From: Chloroflexota bacterium
Lineage (GTDB): Bacteria; Chloroflexota; Dehalococcoidia; GIF9; UBA5629
Assembly (NCBI GenBank): GCA_020354105.1
Contig: CP070642.1
Location: 1,541,044-1,584,044 of the forward strand
Length of the DNA: 43,001 nucleotides
Direction of reading: 5' to 3'
The position numbers and the translations under genes are program-made. The stretch's first letter is position 1, and each line of letters starts with the position of its first letter. Below the pieces are notes generated by a model. That model did not search any database and was not told where the DNA came from. It saw only the letters and a list, made by a program, of their open reading frames with translations. Shown here in pieces: positions 31,656 to 37,972 of this stretch.

Positions 31656-31731
31656 TGGTCGGGGTGAGAGGATTTGAACCTCCGACCTCATGGTCCCAAA
31701 CCATGCGCGCTAGCCACTGCGCTACACCCCG
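31656..31731 (-). tRNA. tRNA-Pro (anticodon UGG), CCA encoded
   Basis: The reverse complement folds by hand. Acceptor CGGGGTG/CACCCCG, anticodon stem CATGG/CCATG with loop TTTGGGA, T-loop TTCAAAT, discriminator A and CCA. Confidence 0.9.
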
Positions 31732-31801
31732 CAGCGAAAAAAGTATAGTTCAATTAGTTTGATATAGTCAAGGAGTCACGCGCGGTTATTGTCTAGTGTT
31801 G

Positions 31802-32521
31802 TTATTTACAGGTGGGACAGGTATCGAAGAAATCCTCAGGCAGATTCCACTTTGTCTTGATGTAGTCTAATTGCTTTTCCGGTGCCCAGTAATTCCCGCA
31901 TACTTTACATTTTTTGAGTTTGAATTCTACCTTCCAGTTGTAGATTATCCGAGTTTCTTTTCTATCCTCCATTTTTATGGCGCCGGTTGGGCATATATAG
32001 AAACAGGAACCGCAGCCTATGCAATCCATTGCTGGTTCGAGAAAGGGAGCAGCAGGCTCCTTAGTTATACCGCGATTGACCAGGCTAATAGCGCTTACCC
32101 CAACAACTTGTTCACAGGCTCTAACGCATAAACCACACACAATGCAGTCATTGTCTTCCAAATACTCAGGCTTGAAAGATGGTTGCTCAATTCCCATCTG
32201 TGATGCGAGTTCTCGTATCACTTTATTTTTGGAGCACCGTGCCAGTAATAATTCTAAGATCATTTTACGGTTACTGGTAATTCTGGGAGAGTCAGTTTTC
32301 ACTTTCAATCCTTCTTCCACGGGATAAAGACAGGATGTCACTATCCTGGTACGTGCTCCTTTAGTAACTTCTACTATGCAAAGCCTGCAGGCACCATATG
32401 GCTCTAAAGCTTCGTTATGGCATAAGGTGGGAATGTCAATGCCATTATCTCTGGCTACCTGAAGTATTGTCTGGTCTTTTTCAGCCTTAAGTTCACGTTC
32501 GTTTATAGTAAAGGTTACCAT
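31802..32521 (-). CDS. NuoG-N-terminal/HydA-N-terminal-like iron-sulfur protein (2Fe-2S plus 4Fe-4S clusters) without a catalytic domain
   Basis: 239 aa. MVTFTINERELKAEKDQTILQVARDNGIDIPTLCHNEALEPYGACRLCIVEV (2Fe-2S and His-ligated cluster region). Two ferredoxin motifs, CIVCGLCVRAC and CIGCGSCFYICP. A C-terminal CKVCG...CPTCK pair. Confidence 0.8.
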   Translation of the reverse strand: MVTFTINERELKAEKDQTILQVARDNGIDIPTLCHNEALEPYGACRLCIVEVTKGARTRIVTSCLYPVEEGLKVKTDSPRITSNRKMILELLLARCSKNKVIRELASQMGIEQPSFKPEYLEDNDCIVCGLCVRACEQVVGVSAISLVNRGITKEPAAPFLEPAMDCIGCGSCFYICPTGAIKMEDRKETRIIYNWKVEFKLKKCKVCGNYWAPEKQLDYIKTKWNLPEDFFDTCPTCK

Positions 32522-32522
32522 C

Positions 32523-34382
32523 TTATTCTCTGCCTACGGCTACTAGTTTACAGACGTCGTAACAAACTCCACACTTGATACACTTCGACTCCTCCAGAGC
32601 AACCGGTTTCTTCTTGCCCAGGAAAGTTATAGCATCTTGAGGGCAAGCTTTAACGCAAAGCCCACAGCCCGGGCATTTTTCTTCTATTATGTAGTAATGA
32701 ATTAGCGCCTTACAGACACCTGCTGGGCATTTCTTCTCTTTAATGTGTGCTTCGTACTCGTCTCTGAAATAGCGAATAGTGGTAATAACTGGATTTGGTG
32801 CTGTGTTACCAAGGGCACAGAGAGAGCTGTCTACGAGAGTGGCGGAAAGCTTTTCCAGAAGATCGATATCTTCTTCGCTGCCCTTACCATCGGTGATATC
32901 ATCCAGAATTTGCCGCATTCGCTTTATTCCCTCACGGCATGGCACACATTTACCGCAAGATTCTTCTTCGAGGAAGGTTAGAAAGTATTTAGCGATGTCT
33001 ACCATACATGTGGTCTCATCCATGACAATCATGCCGCCTGAACCCATCATTGAACCAGCCTTGGTCAGTTCGTCGAAATCTACTGGTAAGTTAAGTAATC
33101 GTTCGGGGAGGCAGCCACCAGAGGGTCCACCGGTCTGCACTGCCTTAAATTTCTTCCCTTCCCGAATACCACCGCCAATATCATAGATAATTTCCTTTAA
33201 GGTTATACCCATTGGTACTTCTACCAAGCCTGTGTTGTTGATCTTCCCTACCAGGGAAAAGATTTTTGTTCCCTTGCTATCATCGGTACCTAAGGTGCGG
33301 TACCAATCAGCTCCTTTATTGATTATCACGGGCACATTAGACCAGGTTTCTACATTGTTCAAATTGCTCGGTTTATCCCACAGTCCCCTTTCCACTGTGT
33401 GGACGTATTTAGCTCTTGGTTCTCCAACCTTACCTTCTAGGGATGCCATTAATGCCGTAGACTCACCGCAAACGAAGGCACCTCCGCCTCTGGTTATGCG
33501 GACATTGAAATCAAAACCTGAGCCTAATACATTGTCTCCGAGCAGCCCTAGCTGTCGTGCTTGATCTAAAGCCAGTCTTGAATTTTCTACAGCCAATGGG
33601 TATTCATGTCGCACATAGACATATCCCTCATGGCATCCGATAGCGTAAGCGCCTATGATTAGTCCTTCGAGGACACTGTGGGGGTTACCTTCGAGTAGGC
33701 TTCTATCCGCATAGGCTCCTGGGTCACCTTCATCGGCATTCACAATGACGTACTTGATGTCTCCTTGTGCATTACGGCATGATTCCCATTTGGTTCCTGT
33801 GGGAAATCCACCACCACCTCGCCCTCTAAGACTAGAATGCTTAATCTCCTCAATTATTTGCTCTGGCGTCATTGCGAAAAGGGCCTTGGCTAAAGCTGAA
33901 TAACCGCCTATTGCGATGTAATCTTCAATGCTCGTTGGATCTATATCACCGTTGCTGCCGAAAATGATTCTCTCTTGTTTCTTATAGAATGGTACTTCGC
34001 GCTGGTGCTCGTTTTTTTTGCCGGTAGTGGGATCAGTGTATAGCAGCCGTTCTATGATGCTGTTTTGGGTGATTGTTTTATCCAGTATTTCAAGAACATC
34101 TTCAGGCTTTACTCGCTGGTATAAAATGTCACCTGGCTGAATAACTACAAGCGGACCCTTCTCACAGAAGCCGTGGCAACCCGTGATTTTTATGTCAACT
34201 TTATTTGCTATCCCCTGTTTTGCGATTTCATTCTTGAAAGCGTCGGTGACTTTCGCACATCCATATGCATGGCAGCCGGTGCCACCACAAATAGTAATTC
34301 GCTGCTTGTCTTTGCGGTTTTTCTTCTCTAGTTCTTTTCGCAGAGCTGTTAAGTCTTCTTTAGAGTTTAGTTTATTTAGCAT
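32523..34382 (-). CDS. NuoF/HydB/HndC-like NAD(P)H- and FMN-binding iron-sulfur flavoprotein
   Basis: 619 aa. N-terminal thioredoxin-like 2Fe-2S (ICGGTGCHAYGC), FMN/NADH region GRGGGGFPTGTKW, the SLBB/4Fe-4S motif ESCGKCVPCREG, and a C-terminal 2x[4Fe-4S] (CPGCGLCVKACP, CIKCGVCYDVC). Confidence 0.88.
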   Translation of the reverse strand: MLNKLNSKEDLTALRKELEKKNRKDKQRITICGGTGCHAYGCAKVTDAFKNEIAKQGIANKVDIKITGCHGFCEKGPLVVIQPGDILYQRVKPEDVLEILDKTITQNSIIERLLYTDPTTGKKNEHQREVPFYKKQERIIFGSNGDIDPTSIEDYIAIGGYSALAKALFAMTPEQIIEEIKHSSLRGRGGGGFPTGTKWESCRNAQGDIKYVIVNADEGDPGAYADRSLLEGNPHSVLEGLIIGAYAIGCHEGYVYVRHEYPLAVENSRLALDQARQLGLLGDNVLGSGFDFNVRITRGGGAFVCGESTALMASLEGKVGEPRAKYVHTVERGLWDKPSNLNNVETWSNVPVIINKGADWYRTLGTDDSKGTKIFSLVGKINNTGLVEVPMGITLKEIIYDIGGGIREGKKFKAVQTGGPSGGCLPERLLNLPVDFDELTKAGSMMGSGGMIVMDETTCMVDIAKYFLTFLEEESCGKCVPCREGIKRMRQILDDITDGKGSEEDIDLLEKLSATLVDSSLCALGNTAPNPVITTIRYFRDEYEAHIKEKKCPAGVCKALIHYYIIEEKCPGCGLCVKACPQDAITFLGKKKPVALEESKCIKCGVCYDVCKLVAVGRE

Positions 34383-34397
34383 TTCACAAATATTTGG

Positions 34398-34847
34398 TTA
34401 CTCGAATTGATTCAACAAGCTGTCAACTTTCTCAGTACTTATCTGTCCGAAATATTCTCCATCAATCTTTATCACAGGTCCTAAAGCGCATGCCCCCATG
34501 CAGTTGACTGTCTCTAACGTAAATTTGCGGTCCTTGCTAGTTCCGCCTCGCTTGATAGTTAAATCTCGTTCGATCTTTTCTAGGATTCTGGCGGCACCTC
34601 TGACATGACAGGCAGTACCCAGACAAACATTAATCAGGTGTTTACCTCTAGGTTCGAGACTGAATGCTCTAAAAAAAGTAGCTATGTCGTACACTCGACT
34701 TACAGGAACAGACATGGTTTCACTTACCTGAATAAGGGCTTCTTTGGGCAGATAATAGTATTCAGTCTGGATATCCTGAAGTATGGAAACAAGTTGGCCC
34801 TTGTCACCATTGTATTTATTTATGATAGCGTTAACCTTGTCTCTCAT
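34398..34847 (-). CDS. NuoE/HydC/HndA-like 2Fe-2S thioredoxin-fold subunit
   Basis: 149 aa with CLGTACHVRG...CMGACALGP. Its ATG overlaps the upstream gene's stop (ATGA). Confidence 0.88.
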   Translation of the reverse strand: MRDKVNAIINKYNGDKGQLVSILQDIQTEYYYLPKEALIQVSETMSVPVSRVYDIATFFRAFSLEPRGKHLINVCLGTACHVRGAARILEKIERDLTIKRGGTSKDRKFTLETVNCMGACALGPVIKIDGEYFGQISTEKVDSLLNQFE

Positions 34848-35779
34848 TGTTGATAATTATTTCTGGCAGCTCTTTCTTTAAGTTTTGAGTATTTAGCAGC
34901 CACTCTTTCTTGGATTTGGGATATTGTCTCTTTTGAAAGATGTCTGAATCTGCCTTGCAGTTTAAAGTAATCCTCTATAGGACGTAGCTTTGGGAAATCT
35001 AAATTCAGAGTATATCTGTCCCCTTCAACTTCATAGATAGGGAATATGCCTGTCTCAACAGCCAGTCGTCCTGCTCTGATTGTTAAATCGGAAGCTAGCC
35101 GCCAGCCGGTGGGACAGACCGACAATATATGAATGTACGATGGCCCATTGACTTCCACAGCTTTATTGATTTTGTTCATAAGGTCAAAGGGGTAGCTGTG
35201 GCATGCTGTGGCTACATAAGGTATGCCATGAGCAACAGCGATAGCCGGCAAATCTTTCTTCCATGTAGTCTGCCCGATGCTAACCTTGCCCGCTGGCGAG
35301 GTCGTGGTAGATGCTCCAAATGGAGTGGAACTGGAGCGTTGAATGCCGGTATTCATATATGCCTCGTTATCAAAACATATGTATATAAAATCATGGCCTC
35401 TCTCGAGGGCACCGGATAGAGCTTGAAAGCCAATGTCAGCAGTCCCCCCATCGCCAGCCATAGCTACAACCTTGGTTTTATTGTTATATTTACCCTTACG
35501 TGTCAGAATTTTTATGCCGGCTTCTATCCCGGAAGCCACAGCTGCGGTATTCTCAAACAAAGTGTGAATCCAGGGGACTTCCCAGGAGGTGGAGGGGAGT
35601 GGTGAGGAAACGATTTCCATGCAGCCTGTGGCATTGGCAATTATTATATTTCTGCCCAAGGCCTTGCATACAAGCCTTACAGCCAAGGCCTCACCACAGC
35701 CCATGCAAGCACGATGTCCTGGAGCAAAATATTCTTTGATCGTTACTAATCGTGGGACATATATGGCTAGACTTTCCAC
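34844..35779 (-). CDS. porB: 2-oxoacid:ferredoxin oxidoreductase beta subunit (TPP-binding)
   Basis: 311 aa. GHRACMGCGEA, AMAGDGGTADIGFQ (TPP GDG motif) and NEAYMNTGIQ. Its GTG start shares 1 nt with the alpha-subunit stop (TAGTG). Confidence 0.88.
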   Translation of the reverse strand: MESLAIYVPRLVTIKEYFAPGHRACMGCGEALAVRLVCKALGRNIIIANATGCMEIVSSPLPSTSWEVPWIHTLFENTAAVASGIEAGIKILTRKGKYNNKTKVVAMAGDGGTADIGFQALSGALERGHDFIYICFDNEAYMNTGIQRSSSTPFGASTTTSPAGKVSIGQTTWKKDLPAIAVAHGIPYVATACHSYPFDLMNKINKAVEVNGPSYIHILSVCPTGWRLASDLTIRAGRLAVETGIFPIYEVEGDRYTLNLDFPKLRPIEDYFKLQGRFRHLSKETISQIQERVAAKYSKLKERAARNNYQQ

Positions 35780-36954
35780 TATTCTCTGACTCCTATTATC
35801 TCGAATTCGTCAAGCTTGCCTCGCTTCGCCCTATTCATCCCATTATTAATTAGCTCTTCAAAACCTTGAATTGAAATCTCCCTTCCTCCGAGGCTACCTA
35901 CAAAACTTACGATCTTTGGCTTGGTCTTTAGCGGGTAAAGTGCTGCTTGTATTTCAGAACAGACCGGTGGGGCTCCTCCAAGAGAAAGAGCTCGGTCAAA
36001 GACGATGAGCAATTGGGCTTTGCTTACGGCTTGGCGTAGCTCCTCAGTTGGAAATGGCCGCCACAGACGCAGCCTTATCAGTCCCACCTTTTGACCCTCT
36101 GCCTGCATTTTATCGATAGACATCATGGCTGTCTCACTGAAACTCCCCATGCACAACAGCAAGACATCAGCATCTTCTGTTTTGTAACTTTCGACAGGTG
36201 CATAGTGGCTACCTGAAAGCTTGCCAAACTCTTGCCACACTTTGAGGATTACTTTTTTAGAGTCTCTTAATGCTACCTCATGTGCCTTTTTGGTCTCGGT
36301 GTAAATAGGTGGAGGACCAAATGCTCCCATAGTCACTGGCTTGTCTGGATTTAAGGGATAAGGATGCCGGTATTCGGGGAGGAATTTGTCTACAACTTTT
36401 TGTTCTAGAAGTTCAACAGATTCGATTGTGTGTGAAATGTAAAATCCGTCTATGTGGACTATTGTGGGTAGCAGGACAGTCAGGTCTTCGGCGATACGGA
36501 AGGCACATAGAACTAAATCAAAGGCTTGTTGAGCATTTTCGGCAAATATCTGAATCCAACCACAATCGCGGATCGCCATTGCGTCAGAATGGTCTGTCCA
36601 GATGCTCAATGGTGCTGAGAGTGCCCTATTAGCTACAGTCATCACTATTGGTAGTCTTAGTCCTGAGGCTACGTAGAGTACCTCATGCATGAGCTCAAGC
36701 CCCTGACTGGCGGTGGCAGTAAAAGTTCTAGCACCTACAGCTGAAGTCCCCAGGCAAGCACTCATTGCTGAGTGCTCTGATTCCACTGGAATATATTCGG
36801 CATCTAGCTCACCGTTAGCTACAAATTCGGCTAATCGCTCCACAATGTGAGTCTGTGGTGTAATGGGATAGGCAGCTATGGCTTCAACGCGAGCTAGTTT
36901 AATAGCCTCAGCTATTGCGAATGATCCCTCCATGCCTATTCGCTTTGTTGTCAT
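35779..36954 (-). CDS. porA: 2-oxoacid:ferredoxin oxidoreductase alpha subunit
   Basis: Start set at ATG 36954 (MTTKRIGMEGSFAIAEAIKLARVEAIAAYPITPQT), 2 nt after the gamma-delta stop. The track start 37017 lies inside the upstream gene. Confidence 0.88.
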   Translation of the reverse strand: MTTKRIGMEGSFAIAEAIKLARVEAIAAYPITPQTHIVERLAEFVANGELDAEYIPVESEHSAMSACLGTSAVGARTFTATASQGLELMHEVLYVASGLRLPIVMTVANRALSAPLSIWTDHSDAMAIRDCGWIQIFAENAQQAFDLVLCAFRIAEDLTVLLPTIVHIDGFYISHTIESVELLEQKVVDKFLPEYRHPYPLNPDKPVTMGAFGPPPIYTETKKAHEVALRDSKKVILKVWQEFGKLSGSHYAPVESYKTEDADVLLLCMGSFSETAMMSIDKMQAEGQKVGLIRLRLWRPFPTEELRQAVSKAQLLIVFDRALSLGGAPPVCSEIQAALYPLKTKPKIVSFVGSLGGREISIQGFEELINNGMNRAKRGKLDEFEIIGVRE

Positions 36955-36956
36955 CT

Positions 36957-37844
36957 CTATTCTTCCTCTACCATCTTTATAGCCTCTGTCCAGCATTCGC
37001 GGGCACAAATACCACATCCCTTACAGTAGTATGGATTGGCTTCGAAGTAGCCGTCCTTATTTTGTCCAATGCATCCCTCCGGACAGAAAAGGTAACAAAT
37101 TCCGCACTTGATACATTTCTGATGGTCCCATATTGGACTTTCTGATTTCCAATCCCCAGTACGATATTGCTTAGCATTCCCCGCCTCAGGGATGACACTG
37201 CCTGGTAATAATTCCTGCCAGGATGGAAATGTTTCTGTTTCGAACGTCTTGGTTGGTTTTTTGACAACGCCGCTAAGTTCAGCAATTTCAGTTTCTTTAT
37301 AGGCTCTGTGGCAGGCATCACTGTTACCCTTGGCTCTGGCACCGAAGCGCTCCTTTAGAGGTTCGGCTAGCGATTCTAGTTCTATTATATCGGTAGCCTT
37401 GACCAGGGCACCGAGCATTGTCGTGTTGACGATTGGAACGCCGATTGTATCTCGAGCAATGGAGGTGGCATTAACAACGGCTAGCTTCCATGATCCGTTG
37501 AATTCTGACTTTATGTCAACCACCGCTTTGGTGGTATTGATTACTATAACACCACCTTCCTTTAGTCCTGCAGTGACATCTGTGATATAGATTAAGCCCG
37601 GGTCTAAGATTACCACGATATCGGGATTTATTACTGAAACCCTGGCTCTGATGGGAGTTTTATCGCTAACGCGGTTGAAGACTAGCACCGGTGCTCCCCT
37701 TCTTTCTGGACCGAAGCTGGGAAATGCTTGAGCAAATTTGCCTTCTTCTATAGCTGCCAGTGCCAGCAGTTCAGCTGACGTTACTGCTCCTTGACCGCCT
37801 CTTCCATGCCAGCGAATTTCGATTATCTTGTCTCTTTTTTCCAA
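36957..37844 (-). CDS. porGD: 2-oxoacid:ferredoxin oxidoreductase gamma-delta fusion subunit
   Basis: Gamma motif EIRWHGRGGQGAVT and a C-terminal delta-type 2x[4Fe-4S] (CIKCGICYLFCP, CKGCGICARECW). Start proposed at TTG 37844, 10 nt after GAGGAA. The track TTG 37862 would begin 2 nt from the tRNA-Arg 3' end with no RBS. Confidence 0.82.
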   Translation of the reverse strand: MEKRDKIIEIRWHGRGGQGAVTSAELLALAAIEEGKFAQAFPSFGPERRGAPVLVFNRVSDKTPIRARVSVINPDIVVILDPGLIYITDVTAGLKEGGVIVINTTKAVVDIKSEFNGSWKLAVVNATSIARDTIGVPIVNTTMLGALVKATDIIELESLAEPLKERFGARAKGNSDACHRAYKETEIAELSGVVKKPTKTFETETFPSWQELLPGSVIPEAGNAKQYRTGDWKSESPIWDHQKCIKCGICYLFCPEGCIGQNKDGYFEANPYYCKGCGICARECWTEAIKMVEEE

Positions 37845-37864
37845 GTTAGTTAATTTCCTCAAAA

Positions 37865-37936
37865 CGCCCCTGGAGGGACTCGAACCCTCGCGCCCGGCTC
37901 CGGAGGCCGGTGCTCTATCCCCTGAGCTACAGGGGC
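37865..37936 (-). tRNA. tRNA-Arg (anticodon CCG), CCA not encoded
   Basis: The reverse complement folds by hand. Acceptor GCCCCTG/CAGGGGC, D-arm GCTC-AGGGGATA-GAGC, anticodon stem CCGGC/GCCGG with loop CTCCGGA, T-arm GAGGG-TTCGAGT-CCCTC, discriminator G. Confidence 0.88.
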
Positions 37937-37943
37937 TTTGGTT

Positions 37944-37972
37944 ATTTTAAACGCTGCTGTGTTATTTGGCAA
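37944..37972 (-). promoter_or_regulatory. Candidate sigma70-type promoter driving tRNA-Arg and probably the downstream oxidoreductase operon
   Basis: On the minus strand: TTGCCA (37972..37967), a 17-nt spacer, then TAAAAT (37949..37944). The -10 ends 7 nt before the tRNA 5' end. Confidence 0.5.

Follow-up and report, generated by a model that had tools for sequence, protein, structure and literature searches.

Six minus-strand genes, porCD, porA, porB, bfuC, bfuB and bfuA, adjoin or overlap across positions 31802-37844 of the window (the whole 43,001-nt stretch of DNA that was analysed) and are predicted to encode a single soluble Por-Bfu-type enzyme made of several subunits, coupling pyruvate to NAD+ and ferredoxin by electron bifurcation. 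We consider this reading probable, though well short of certain. A sequence-only reading of the window had suggested a POR wired to a hydrogenase-less HydABC/Bfu-type module, possibly bifurcating; as a prediction this is supported by synteny, the cofactor set of BfuB, a WorA-like BfuA, the retention of BfuA with the POR and the lack of an [FeFe]-hydrogenase domain. The idea itself is not new, since Schut et al. 2022 (Front Microbiol 13:946711, PMC9304861) named such a cluster "Por-Bfu" and predicted it to be an electron-bifurcating enzyme. The window operon is, as judged from its gene order, its flanking tRNA genes and the clade of its BfuB, the ortholog of the Dehalococcoides mccartyi Por-Bfu cluster. 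The operon and its surroundings comprise the following features.

31656..31731, minus strand: tRNA-Pro(TGG), directly downstream of the operon (ARAGORN); flank conserved in related genomes.
31742-31771: promoter-like match ahead of tRNA-Pro (promoter scan).
31802..32521, minus strand: bfuA, short NuoG-N/HydA-N-type subunit with A1 [2Fe-2S], A2 and A4 [4Fe-4S] and a C-terminal CxxC...CxxC zinc-finger motif (Pfam).
32523..34382, minus strand: bfuB, NuoF/HydB-type FMN/NAD(H) subunit with N-terminal [2Fe-2S], NuoF [4Fe-4S], B2 (Zn or 2Fe-2S) site and C-terminal 2x[4Fe-4S] (Pfam).
34398..34847, minus strand: bfuC, NuoE/HydC-type [2Fe-2S] subunit (PF01257 over the full length, E 6e-49).
34844..35779, minus strand: porB, TPP-binding POR beta (PF02775).
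35779..36954, minus strand: porA, POR alpha (PF01855 and PF17147, POR_N/PFOR_II).
36957..37844, minus strand: porCD, fused POR gamma (residues ~7-187) and delta (residues ~215-295, 8 Cys for 2x[4Fe-4S]) (PF01558, Fer4, TIGR02175, TIGR02179).
37865..37936, minus strand: tRNA-Arg(CCG), directly upstream of the operon (ARAGORN); also flanks orthologous operons of other Dehalococcoidia.
37944..37972, minus strand: promoter-like match upstream of tRNA-Arg, sigma-70-like TTGCCA-17-TAAAAT (consensus scan, 10/12 matches; a consensus match only).

The two tRNA genes thus bracket the operon on either side. Within it, the porCD stop (TAG 36957-36959) lies 2 nt ahead of the porA ATG (36954), the porA stop and the porB GTG share TAGTG (35779), and the porB stop and the bfuC ATG share ATGA (34844-34847). 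A gap of 15 nt separates bfuC from bfuB, and the bfuB stop lies 1 nt ahead of the bfuA ATG (32521). All six genes are joined by overlaps or by junctions of at most 15 nt, and a minus-strand scan found no terminator-like site between them. The packing therefore stands as it was first described, ORFs and junctions alike, and the Por and Bfu genes of the window are co-encoded and translationally coupled as far as DNA sequence can demonstrate it. The 5' limit first given, TTG 37862, had to be corrected. It lies only 3 nt from the end of tRNA-Arg, and the start of porCD is likely TTG 37844, which is preceded by GAGGA and from which the homologues align. The spacing between tRNA-Arg and porCD leaves no room for a promoter. 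The gap between porB and bfuC is also small in related loci (at most 20 nt in 28 of 39, median 2 nt; these figures are approximate, the start codons having been picked automatically), so the tight junctions are no chance feature of the window genome.

The order porC(D)-porA-porB-bfuC-bfuB-bfuA was found in 41 loci including the window, spanning Dehalococcoidia, Syntrophus/Syntrophales, Syntrophorhabdaceae, Desulfobaccales, SAR324 and 'Pseudomonadota' MAGs. A synteny check had been proposed together with the first description, and the six-gene order proved to be conserved across phyla. The flanking tRNA-Arg(CCG) and tRNA-Pro(TGG) are kept within Dehalococcoidia, D. mccartyi-group genomes included. 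In some lineages a single NfnA/GltD-like flavoprotein stands in place of bfuC and bfuB, this variant occupying the same tRNA-flanked site, and BfuA still follows porB; it does so as well in loci that lost bfuCB. That BfuA stays with the POR when bfuCB is swapped supports a POR wired to pyridine nucleotides through BfuA. The papers searched held no description of the operon type with an NfnA/GltD-like flavoprotein in place of bfuCB.

BfuA is an Fe-S subunit of 239 aa without a catalytic domain. Pfam and NCBIfam return NuoG-N 2Fe-2S and 2x[4Fe-4S], in agreement with the earlier description of a third subunit devoid of an H-cluster, molybdopterin or other catalytic domain. Sixteen Cys are invariant in the BfuA alignment, comprising the cluster ligands 34/45/48/64, 126/129/132/136 and 167/170/173/177 and the zinc-finger residues C205/208/235/238, which align with Cys of WorA. 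The His-ligated A3 cluster is absent from BfuA (no HxxxCxxC motif), as is A5. Having A1, A2 and A4, neither A3 nor A5 and no catalytic domain, the protein corresponds to a Type 2 Bfu. Among solved structures the best match is WorA (9mqx_A, full-length alignment, E 1e-46), and Foldseek also ranks this chain first for an AlphaFold2 model of BfuA, the model being of low confidence (11-row alignment, pLDDT 66, below 50 in the 4Fe-4S domain). BfuA ends 1 residue past its last Cys, whereas WorA runs 13 residues further; the Por-Bfu homologue of WorA has been described as having the zinc finger and lacking the C-terminal helix (PMC12318220). With A1, A2, A4 and a zinc finger it has the architecture of WorA, in line with the prediction of BfuA as a WorA-like adaptor.

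BfuC contains only four Cys (Cys75, 80, 116 and 120), corresponding to the one [2Fe-2S] cluster (C1) of the Bfu family. BfuB matches 7t2r_B, 9mqx_B and 8a6t_B (E ~1e-240) and carries PF01512 and PF10589, with the GRGGGGFPTG motif of the FMN/NAD(H) site at residue 187. Its ligand Cys and His are 97-100% conserved in 34 POR-linked orthologues: C32/37/69/73 of the N-terminal [2Fe-2S] at 97%, C476/479/482/522 of the B1 [4Fe-4S] without variation, and both the B2 site (C459, H546, C552 and C557, which map onto the NiFe-HydB B2 ligands) and the eight Cys of the C-terminal 2x[4Fe-4S] (C570/573/576/580/601/604/607/611) at 100%. T497, aligned with C476 of NiFe-HydB, is Thr in 24 and Cys in 7 of the 34. 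The full HydB/HndC architecture first ascribed to this NuoF-like subunit, with N-terminal 2Fe-2S, FMN/NAD site and C-terminal 2x[4Fe-4S], was confirmed by Pfam and NCBIfam. BfuB thus has the extra clusters B2-B5 of the Bfu family, which are absent from the non-bifurcating NuoF/HoxF/FdsB (PMC9304861). As read from the alignments, every cofactor-binding residue of the structurally characterised electron-bifurcating HydABC, NiFe-HydABCSL and WorABCSL cores is present in BfuC, BfuB and BfuA. A phylogenetic placing of the NuoF-like subunit, likewise proposed at the outset, puts the window protein in a Chloroflexota clade (SH-aLRT 99) together with the Dehalococcoides Por-Bfu BfuB, 28 of the 33 rows of this clade being POR-linked.

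On the POR side all four PorABCD parts are present, namely a TPP-binding beta, an alpha (domains I/II), a gamma and a delta with 2x[4Fe-4S] (Pfam, NCBIfam; PDB 9bt4 subunits). PorCD matches 9bt4_E, 9bt4_G and 5c4i_B (fused OOR delta subunit), and the eight Cys of its delta part lie at 244-284. Among related loci, 17 have PorC and PorD fused and 36 have them split. Profile matches cover the POR subunits from one end to the other, and no insertion marking a special docking surface was found in them.

Canonical-looking POR subunits are what one would expect if the operon encoded two separate enzymes, an ordinary free-ferredoxin POR and an independent BfuABC that uses the same ferredoxin pool or a partner elsewhere, co-transcribed for pathway reasons only. 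Several observations speak for such an arrangement or count against a single enzyme. BfuA has no C-terminal helix of the kind that WorA uses for partner recruitment, the POR subunits carry no docking-type insertion, and the same genome has another bfuCBA that stands alone, with no catalytic partner beside it, so Bfu modules need not be encoded beside their partner. In 15 related BfuA loci BfuBC is present and no POR lies within reach. In the complexome of D. mccartyi CBDB1, PorA, PorB and PorG clustered together without any reported Bfu subunit; cbdbA684, which its place in the gene order marks as probably BfuB, was detected in just one of the analyses. However, a BfuABC with a catalytically empty BfuA would have no third substrate of its own, and porB overlaps bfuC in the window and lies close to it in most related loci. 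The association is kept across phyla, BfuA remains beside porB even where BfuBC was swapped or lost, and POR-linked BfuB and POR-linked BfuA each cluster in trees. We therefore regard two separate enzymes as unlikely, while taking this alternative more seriously than those that follow.

In the one-enzyme reading, electrons from TPP-bound pyruvate would pass to the PorB [4Fe-4S] and on to the two PorD [4Fe-4S] clusters, and from there to the ferredoxin-like A4/A2 domain of BfuA, which would replace free ferredoxin. A1 of BfuA would then deliver them to the FMN of BfuB, where oxidising 2 pyruvate with 2 CoA would obligately reduce one NAD+ and two ferredoxins in a coupled reaction. Run in reverse, as confurcation, NADH and reduced ferredoxin would drive the formation of pyruvate from acetyl-CoA and CO2. 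What would be gained by bifurcation is not obvious, since the standard potential of the pyruvate couple (E0' = -500 mV; Table 1, PMC9304861) equals that of ferredoxin. At an acetyl-CoA/CoA ratio of ~1, 20 mM CO2 and 50 μM pyruvate, we estimate from this E0' a potential near -420 mV, which lies between NADH (~-280 mV) and ferredoxin (~-500 mV), so that both directions could be open to the enzyme, close to equilibrium. RnfD was not found in the genome, nor was another PorA-type POR; hence the complex would link acetyl-CoA with pyruvate and at the same time act as a main site of NADH/ferredoxin coupling.

Pyruvate is reducing enough for direct reduction of NAD+ (Table 1, PMC9304861), and the parallel operons that have an NfnA/GltD-like flavoprotein suggest that plain NAD(P) coupling is used too. 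Both points would suit a non-bifurcating pyruvate:NAD+ oxidoreductase, with electrons passing from POR via BfuA and FMN to NAD+ and ferredoxin not obligatory. Such an enzyme appears improbable to us, because BfuB retains three features that non-bifurcating homologues lack (N-terminal 2Fe-2S, B2 site and C-terminal 2x[4Fe-4S]) and because the related Wor-Bfu, whose substrate is of equally low potential, did not reduce either acceptor on its own (PMC9304861). The literature searched contained no experimental demonstration of association, NAD coupling or bifurcation for any Por-Bfu. A 2-oxoacid other than pyruvate as substrate of the TPP enzyme (2-oxoisovalerate, 2-oxobutyrate or aryl-pyruvate) is more improbable still: PorA (488.6 bits against a cut-off of 550, NF040682 PorA_Arch) and PorC (209.3 against 225) fall below their NCBIfam cut-offs and VOR models also score well on the window POR subunits, but PorB exceeds that of the PorB equivalog (420.3 bits against 405, NF008819), the genome's sole further OFOR belongs to the Kor/Vor delta-alpha-beta-gamma type, and the D. 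mccartyi orthologue is treated as the pyruvate synthase required for growth on acetate.

Other assignments were rejected. An [FeFe]-hydrogenase HydABC does not fit, as the H-cluster domain PF02906 is absent from BfuA and was not found in the whole genome either (some stretches being masked). As a main reading, a BfuABC serving a hydrogenase encoded elsewhere was set aside on the same ground and because the only clear [NiFe] large subunit is encoded ~575 kb from the operon in a context of its own. A complex I N-module (NuoEFG) is at odds with a BfuA of 239 aa lacking the N5 motif and with the extra N- and C-terminal Fe-S domains of BfuB. The phenylglyoxylate:NAD+ oxidoreductase PadEFGHI was discarded, its models scoring 161-309 bits against cut-offs of 300-700 and the operon having no GltD-like gene. 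The apparent giant NuoF (1352 aa) and NiFe (738 aa) 'fusions' in the genome are artefacts caused by runs of masked N.

Should the proposal for Por-Bfu prove correct, the step between acetyl-CoA and pyruvate, which is a node central to anaerobic carbon metabolism, would be no plain ferredoxin reaction in Dehalococcoidia, syntrophs and their relatives. Its coupling to NADH by electron bifurcation would alter how energy and redox are budgeted when the metabolism of organohalide respirers and of subsurface Chloroflexota is modelled. Going further, we tentatively suggest, with rather less than even confidence, that POR and BfuA form a conserved 'socket' for interchangeable pyridine-nucleotide modules. 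With BfuBC it would make a reversible, obligately NADH- and ferredoxin-coupled pyruvate synthase/oxidase near equilibrium, letting Rnf-less Dehalococcoidia make pyruvate on half the reduced ferredoxin; with the NfnA/GltD-like flavoprotein it would make an NADP(H)-linked POR. The value of the present analysis is mainly confirmatory, in that the Por-Bfu cluster is widespread and a sister operon type with a swapped flavoprotein module is pointed out.

An OFOR-type TPP enzyme wired directly to a pyridine-nucleotide flavoprotein has precedents in PadEFGHI of Azoarcus evansii and in the Euglena pyruvate:NADP+ oxidoreductase, where the flavoprotein is a GltD-like FAD subunit or a P450-reductase-like domain fused to the enzyme. 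To our knowledge, neither has a NuoEF-type FMN core or ferredoxin-coupled bifurcation. NiFe-HydABCSL and FeFe-HydABC (PDB 7t2r, 8a6t, 7p5h) share with the window the BfuB/BfuC core and all its ligands, whereas the window has no H-cluster domain, no NiFe subunits and neither A3 nor A5 in BfuA. Closer is WorABCSL, the bifurcating tungsten aldehyde oxidoreductase of Acetomicrobium mobile (PDB 9mqx, PMC12318220). It too is a Type-2 Bfu, and its third substrate, again of low potential, is handled by additional subunits; WorA agrees with BfuA in its clusters and in the four Cys of the zinc finger, and WorB matches BfuB (E ~1e-239). Its partner, however, is the tungstopterin WorSL nanowire, recruited by the C-terminal helix of WorA. 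As BfuA ends at the zinc finger and the partner in the window is a TPP enzyme, the mode of docking must differ.

The D. mccartyi 195 Por-Bfu operon, "sandwiched between two tRNA genes" and the subject of a co-expression argument (PMC9304861), resembles the window in gene order, flanking tRNA-Arg(CCG) and tRNA-Pro(TGG), Type-2 BfuA (A1, A2 and A4, no A3) and BfuB clade. The D. mccartyi-group loci (G055, G079 and G133), 50-68% identical to the window in amino-acid sequence, were tied to it through a BfuB segment nearly identical to the 'Dm Por' row in a machine-read supplement of that paper, with differences such as GVGR vs GVKR. The host of the window operon is an uncultured marine-sediment member of the Dehalococcoidia, of another order than D. 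mccartyi and, on the present evidence, no organohalide respirer. Local differences from the known Por-Bfu are small: PorC and PorD are fused, giving six genes rather than seven.

Re-examination of the window sequence returned the six minus-strand open reading frames with the junctions described in the sequence-only reading. The porA ATG lies 2 nt after the porCD stop, porA and porB overlap in TAGTG and porB and bfuC in ATGA, 15 nt separate bfuC from bfuB, and bfuA follows bfuB after 1 nt. A consensus-match scan of the window revealed no terminator-like minus-strand sites between the six genes. ARAGORN placed a tRNA gene on either side of the operon:

37865-37936, minus strand, tRNA-Arg(CCG)
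31656-31731, minus strand, tRNA-Pro(TGG)

The start previously listed for porCD, TTG 37862, therefore abuts tRNA-Arg. Homologues align from TTG 37844, located behind GAGGA, which is likely the true start. Since the only good upstream promoter-like match precedes tRNA-Arg (within 37865-37972; consensus match only), the tRNA may form the 5' leader of the operon mRNA. A second such match, likewise consensus only, precedes tRNA-Pro (within 31656-31771). The operon lies between these two tRNAs in every Dehalococcoidia locus examined with enough flank.

Domain assignments (Pfam, NCBIfam) identified the first three products as a pyruvate:ferredoxin oxidoreductase (POR). PorCD joins a POR gamma subunit to a delta subunit that carries a 2x[4Fe-4S] dicluster, PorA comprises POR_N and PFOR_II, and PorB is the TPP-binding beta subunit, scoring 420 bits with the PorB equivalog (cut-off 405). 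The porCD fusion spans 36957-37844. PorC and PorD form one polypeptide in 17 loci (the window and 16 others) and are separate genes in 36, Dehalococcoides among the latter. The fused loci belong to the window's clade, two related genomes (G115 and G076) and one Desulfovibrionaceae MAG; the fusion is lineage-specific. Oxalate oxidoreductase delta (5c4i_B) is a solved precedent for such a gamma/delta arrangement.

By the same searches, BfuC is a full-length NuoE-type [2Fe-2S] protein and BfuB a 619-aa NuoF homologue with an N-terminal thioredoxin-like [2Fe-2S] domain and a C-terminal 2x[4Fe-4S] domain. BfuB matches bifurcating NiFe-HydB (7t2r_B), WorB of the bifurcating WorABCSL (9mqx_B) and FeFe-HydB (8a6t_B), all with E about 1e-240. 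Among 34 POR-linked orthologues, conservation is 97-100% for the ligand Cys/His residues at the N-terminal [2Fe-2S], NuoF cluster, Cys/His site B2 and C-terminal dicluster; together with the domains, this bears out the full HydB architecture proposed earlier. The published B2 ligands of NiFe-HydB (C438, C476, H525, C531, C536) align with C459, T497, H546, C552 and C557 of the window BfuB. Position 497 is Thr or Cys in most of the 34 orthologues, and by analogy with Thr-type enzymes the Thr suggests zinc rather than a 2Fe-2S cluster at B2. The BfuB tree places the window protein in a Chloroflexota clade (SH-aLRT 99; 28 of 33 rows POR-linked), which also includes Dehalococcoides genomes and gives the NuoF-like subunit the phylogenetic placement that had been called for.

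BfuA (239 aa) contains only [2Fe-2S] and 2x[4Fe-4S] ferredoxin-like domains, with no catalytic domain. Of the solved structures, WorA is closest to it (9mqx_A, E 1e-46, full length). An alignment of 11 sequences revealed 16 invariant BfuA Cys, four for cluster A1, eight for A2/A4 and four, at the C-terminus, that align with the zinc-finger Cys of WorA; it contained no His-ligated A3 motif in BfuA. One residue separates the last Cys from the protein end in the window BfuA, whereas WorA has 13 further residues. Type 2 Bfu, including Por-Bfu, have a BfuA without clusters A3 and A5 (PMC9304861), and the 2025 WorABCSL structure paper describes the Por-Bfu WorA homologue as keeping the zinc finger and missing the C-terminal helix (PMC12318220). 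In a D. mccartyi-group genome (G133, 1,469,720 bases; L037:7620-8400), bfuA is frameshifted just before the zinc-finger Cys pairs, so that the C-terminal 40 residues are read in a different frame, which may reflect either a genuine lesion or an error in sequencing.

The six-gene set is common to all close relatives with enough flank, and same-class genomes of 50-68% identity share the order tRNA-Arg(CCG)-porC-porD-porA-porB-bfuC-bfuB-bfuA-tRNA-Pro(TGG). When the 80 loci returned by a profile-based scan were pooled with others, POR-BfuCBA was present in 41 loci. Hosts include Syntrophus, Syntrophales, Syntrophorhabdaceae, Desulfobaccales, SAR324 and 'Pseudomonadota' MAGs. In 28 of 39 loci, at most 20 nt lie between porB and bfuC.

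In several lineages, a single gene for a protein of ~645 aa occupies the position of bfuC and bfuB, while porCDAB and bfuA are kept. The replacement protein combines NuoF C-terminal [4Fe-4S], Fer4_20 and pyridine-nucleotide/FAD domains; among solved structures it best matches the NADPH-binding part of NfnA in NfnABC (9n5u_A, E 6e-101). Variant operons were located as follows:

L034:5559-7490, plus strand, replacement flavoprotein gene
L035:2623-4572, minus strand, replacement flavoprotein gene
L089, L092, L101, L103, L107, L108 and L112, further operons of the replacement protein type

Within Dehalococcoidia the hosts are G150, G115 and three further MAGs (one without upstream flank), where the operons lie between the same tRNA-Arg and tRNA-Pro as in the window; other hosts are Desulfobacteraceae, Syntrophaceae/Syntrophales and 'deltaproteobacterial' MAGs. 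BfuA proteins from these variant operons group in a separate clade that spans phyla. A further Dehalococcoidia genome (G043, L033:4556-8252) carries tRNA-Arg, porC, porD, porA, porB, bfuA and tRNA-Pro; a flavoprotein gene is absent, and bfuA starts 53 nt after porB. BfuA thus remains with POR even where another NAD(P)H module takes the place of BfuC and BfuB, as would be expected if BfuA were the dedicated electron outlet of POR; this adds comparative evidence for the proposed coupling.

The window's genome (1.76 Mb) encodes four NuoF homologues and a second OFOR of the Kor/Vor type. A second bfuC-bfuB-bfuA set (G000:C1:1599595-1602714, minus strand; 192, 617 and 228 aa) lies ~16 kb beyond the window end with no catalytic partner gene adjacent, and its BfuA differs from the window BfuA in its Cys-rich C-terminus. 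One clear [NiFe] large subunit is encoded ~575 kb away. Neither an [FeFe]-hydrogenase H-cluster domain nor RnfD was found in this genome, absences that carry the caveat of masked N runs. These runs create spurious long ORFs out of unrelated genes (e.g. G000:C1:909176-913234 and 997095-999311), such as BfuB with ClpB and a PorC-like domain with the NiFe large subunit. At G000:C1:1633823-1638183 (minus strand), a 1027-aa protein combines a BfuB-type NuoF with a C-terminal half resembling GltD/NfnA; ahead of its gene lie a NuoE gene and a sequence encoding the C-terminal portion of a formate-dehydrogenase-like molybdopterin subunit.

The reading we favour for the predicted operon products, with somewhat better than even confidence, is a single Por-Bfu complex. 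Electrons would pass from TPP through the PorB cluster, the PorD clusters and BfuA A4-A2-A1 to the BfuB FMN, where the reduction of NAD would be tied to that of ferredoxin. From the E0' of the pyruvate couple, -500 mV (PMC9304861), and plausible metabolite levels we estimate ~-420 mV, a value between those of NADH and ferredoxin, so that an enzyme running reversibly and close to equilibrium is thermodynamically reasonable. Against a single complex, the D. mccartyi CBDB1 complexome reports only Por subunits clustering together, the WorA docking helix is missing from the window BfuA, and a stand-alone BfuABC is encoded in the same genome.

The definition of the Bfu family comes from Schut et al. 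2022 (PMC9304861), who also listed a predicted 'Por-Bfu (A-G)' and proposed that this bifurcating NAD/ferredoxin enzyme would use pyruvate as its third substrate. The idea of a POR wired to a Bfu-type module is supported, and thus re-derives a published prediction. In the literature searched, the term Por-Bfu was found in PMC9304861 and PMC12318220 only, a November 2026 review of PFOR diversity is silent on it, and no description of the swapped-module sister operon was found. The locus itself would not surprise a specialist; the operon variant and Por-Bfu biochemistry are the parts worth following. Three same-class genomes (1.36-1.52 Mb, single contigs) have a BfuB segment almost identical to the 'Dm Por' row of the Schut supplement. 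By shared synteny, tRNA flanks, BfuB and BfuA features and the BfuB clade, the window locus is an orthologue of the published Por-Bfu exemplar of Dehalococcoides mccartyi.
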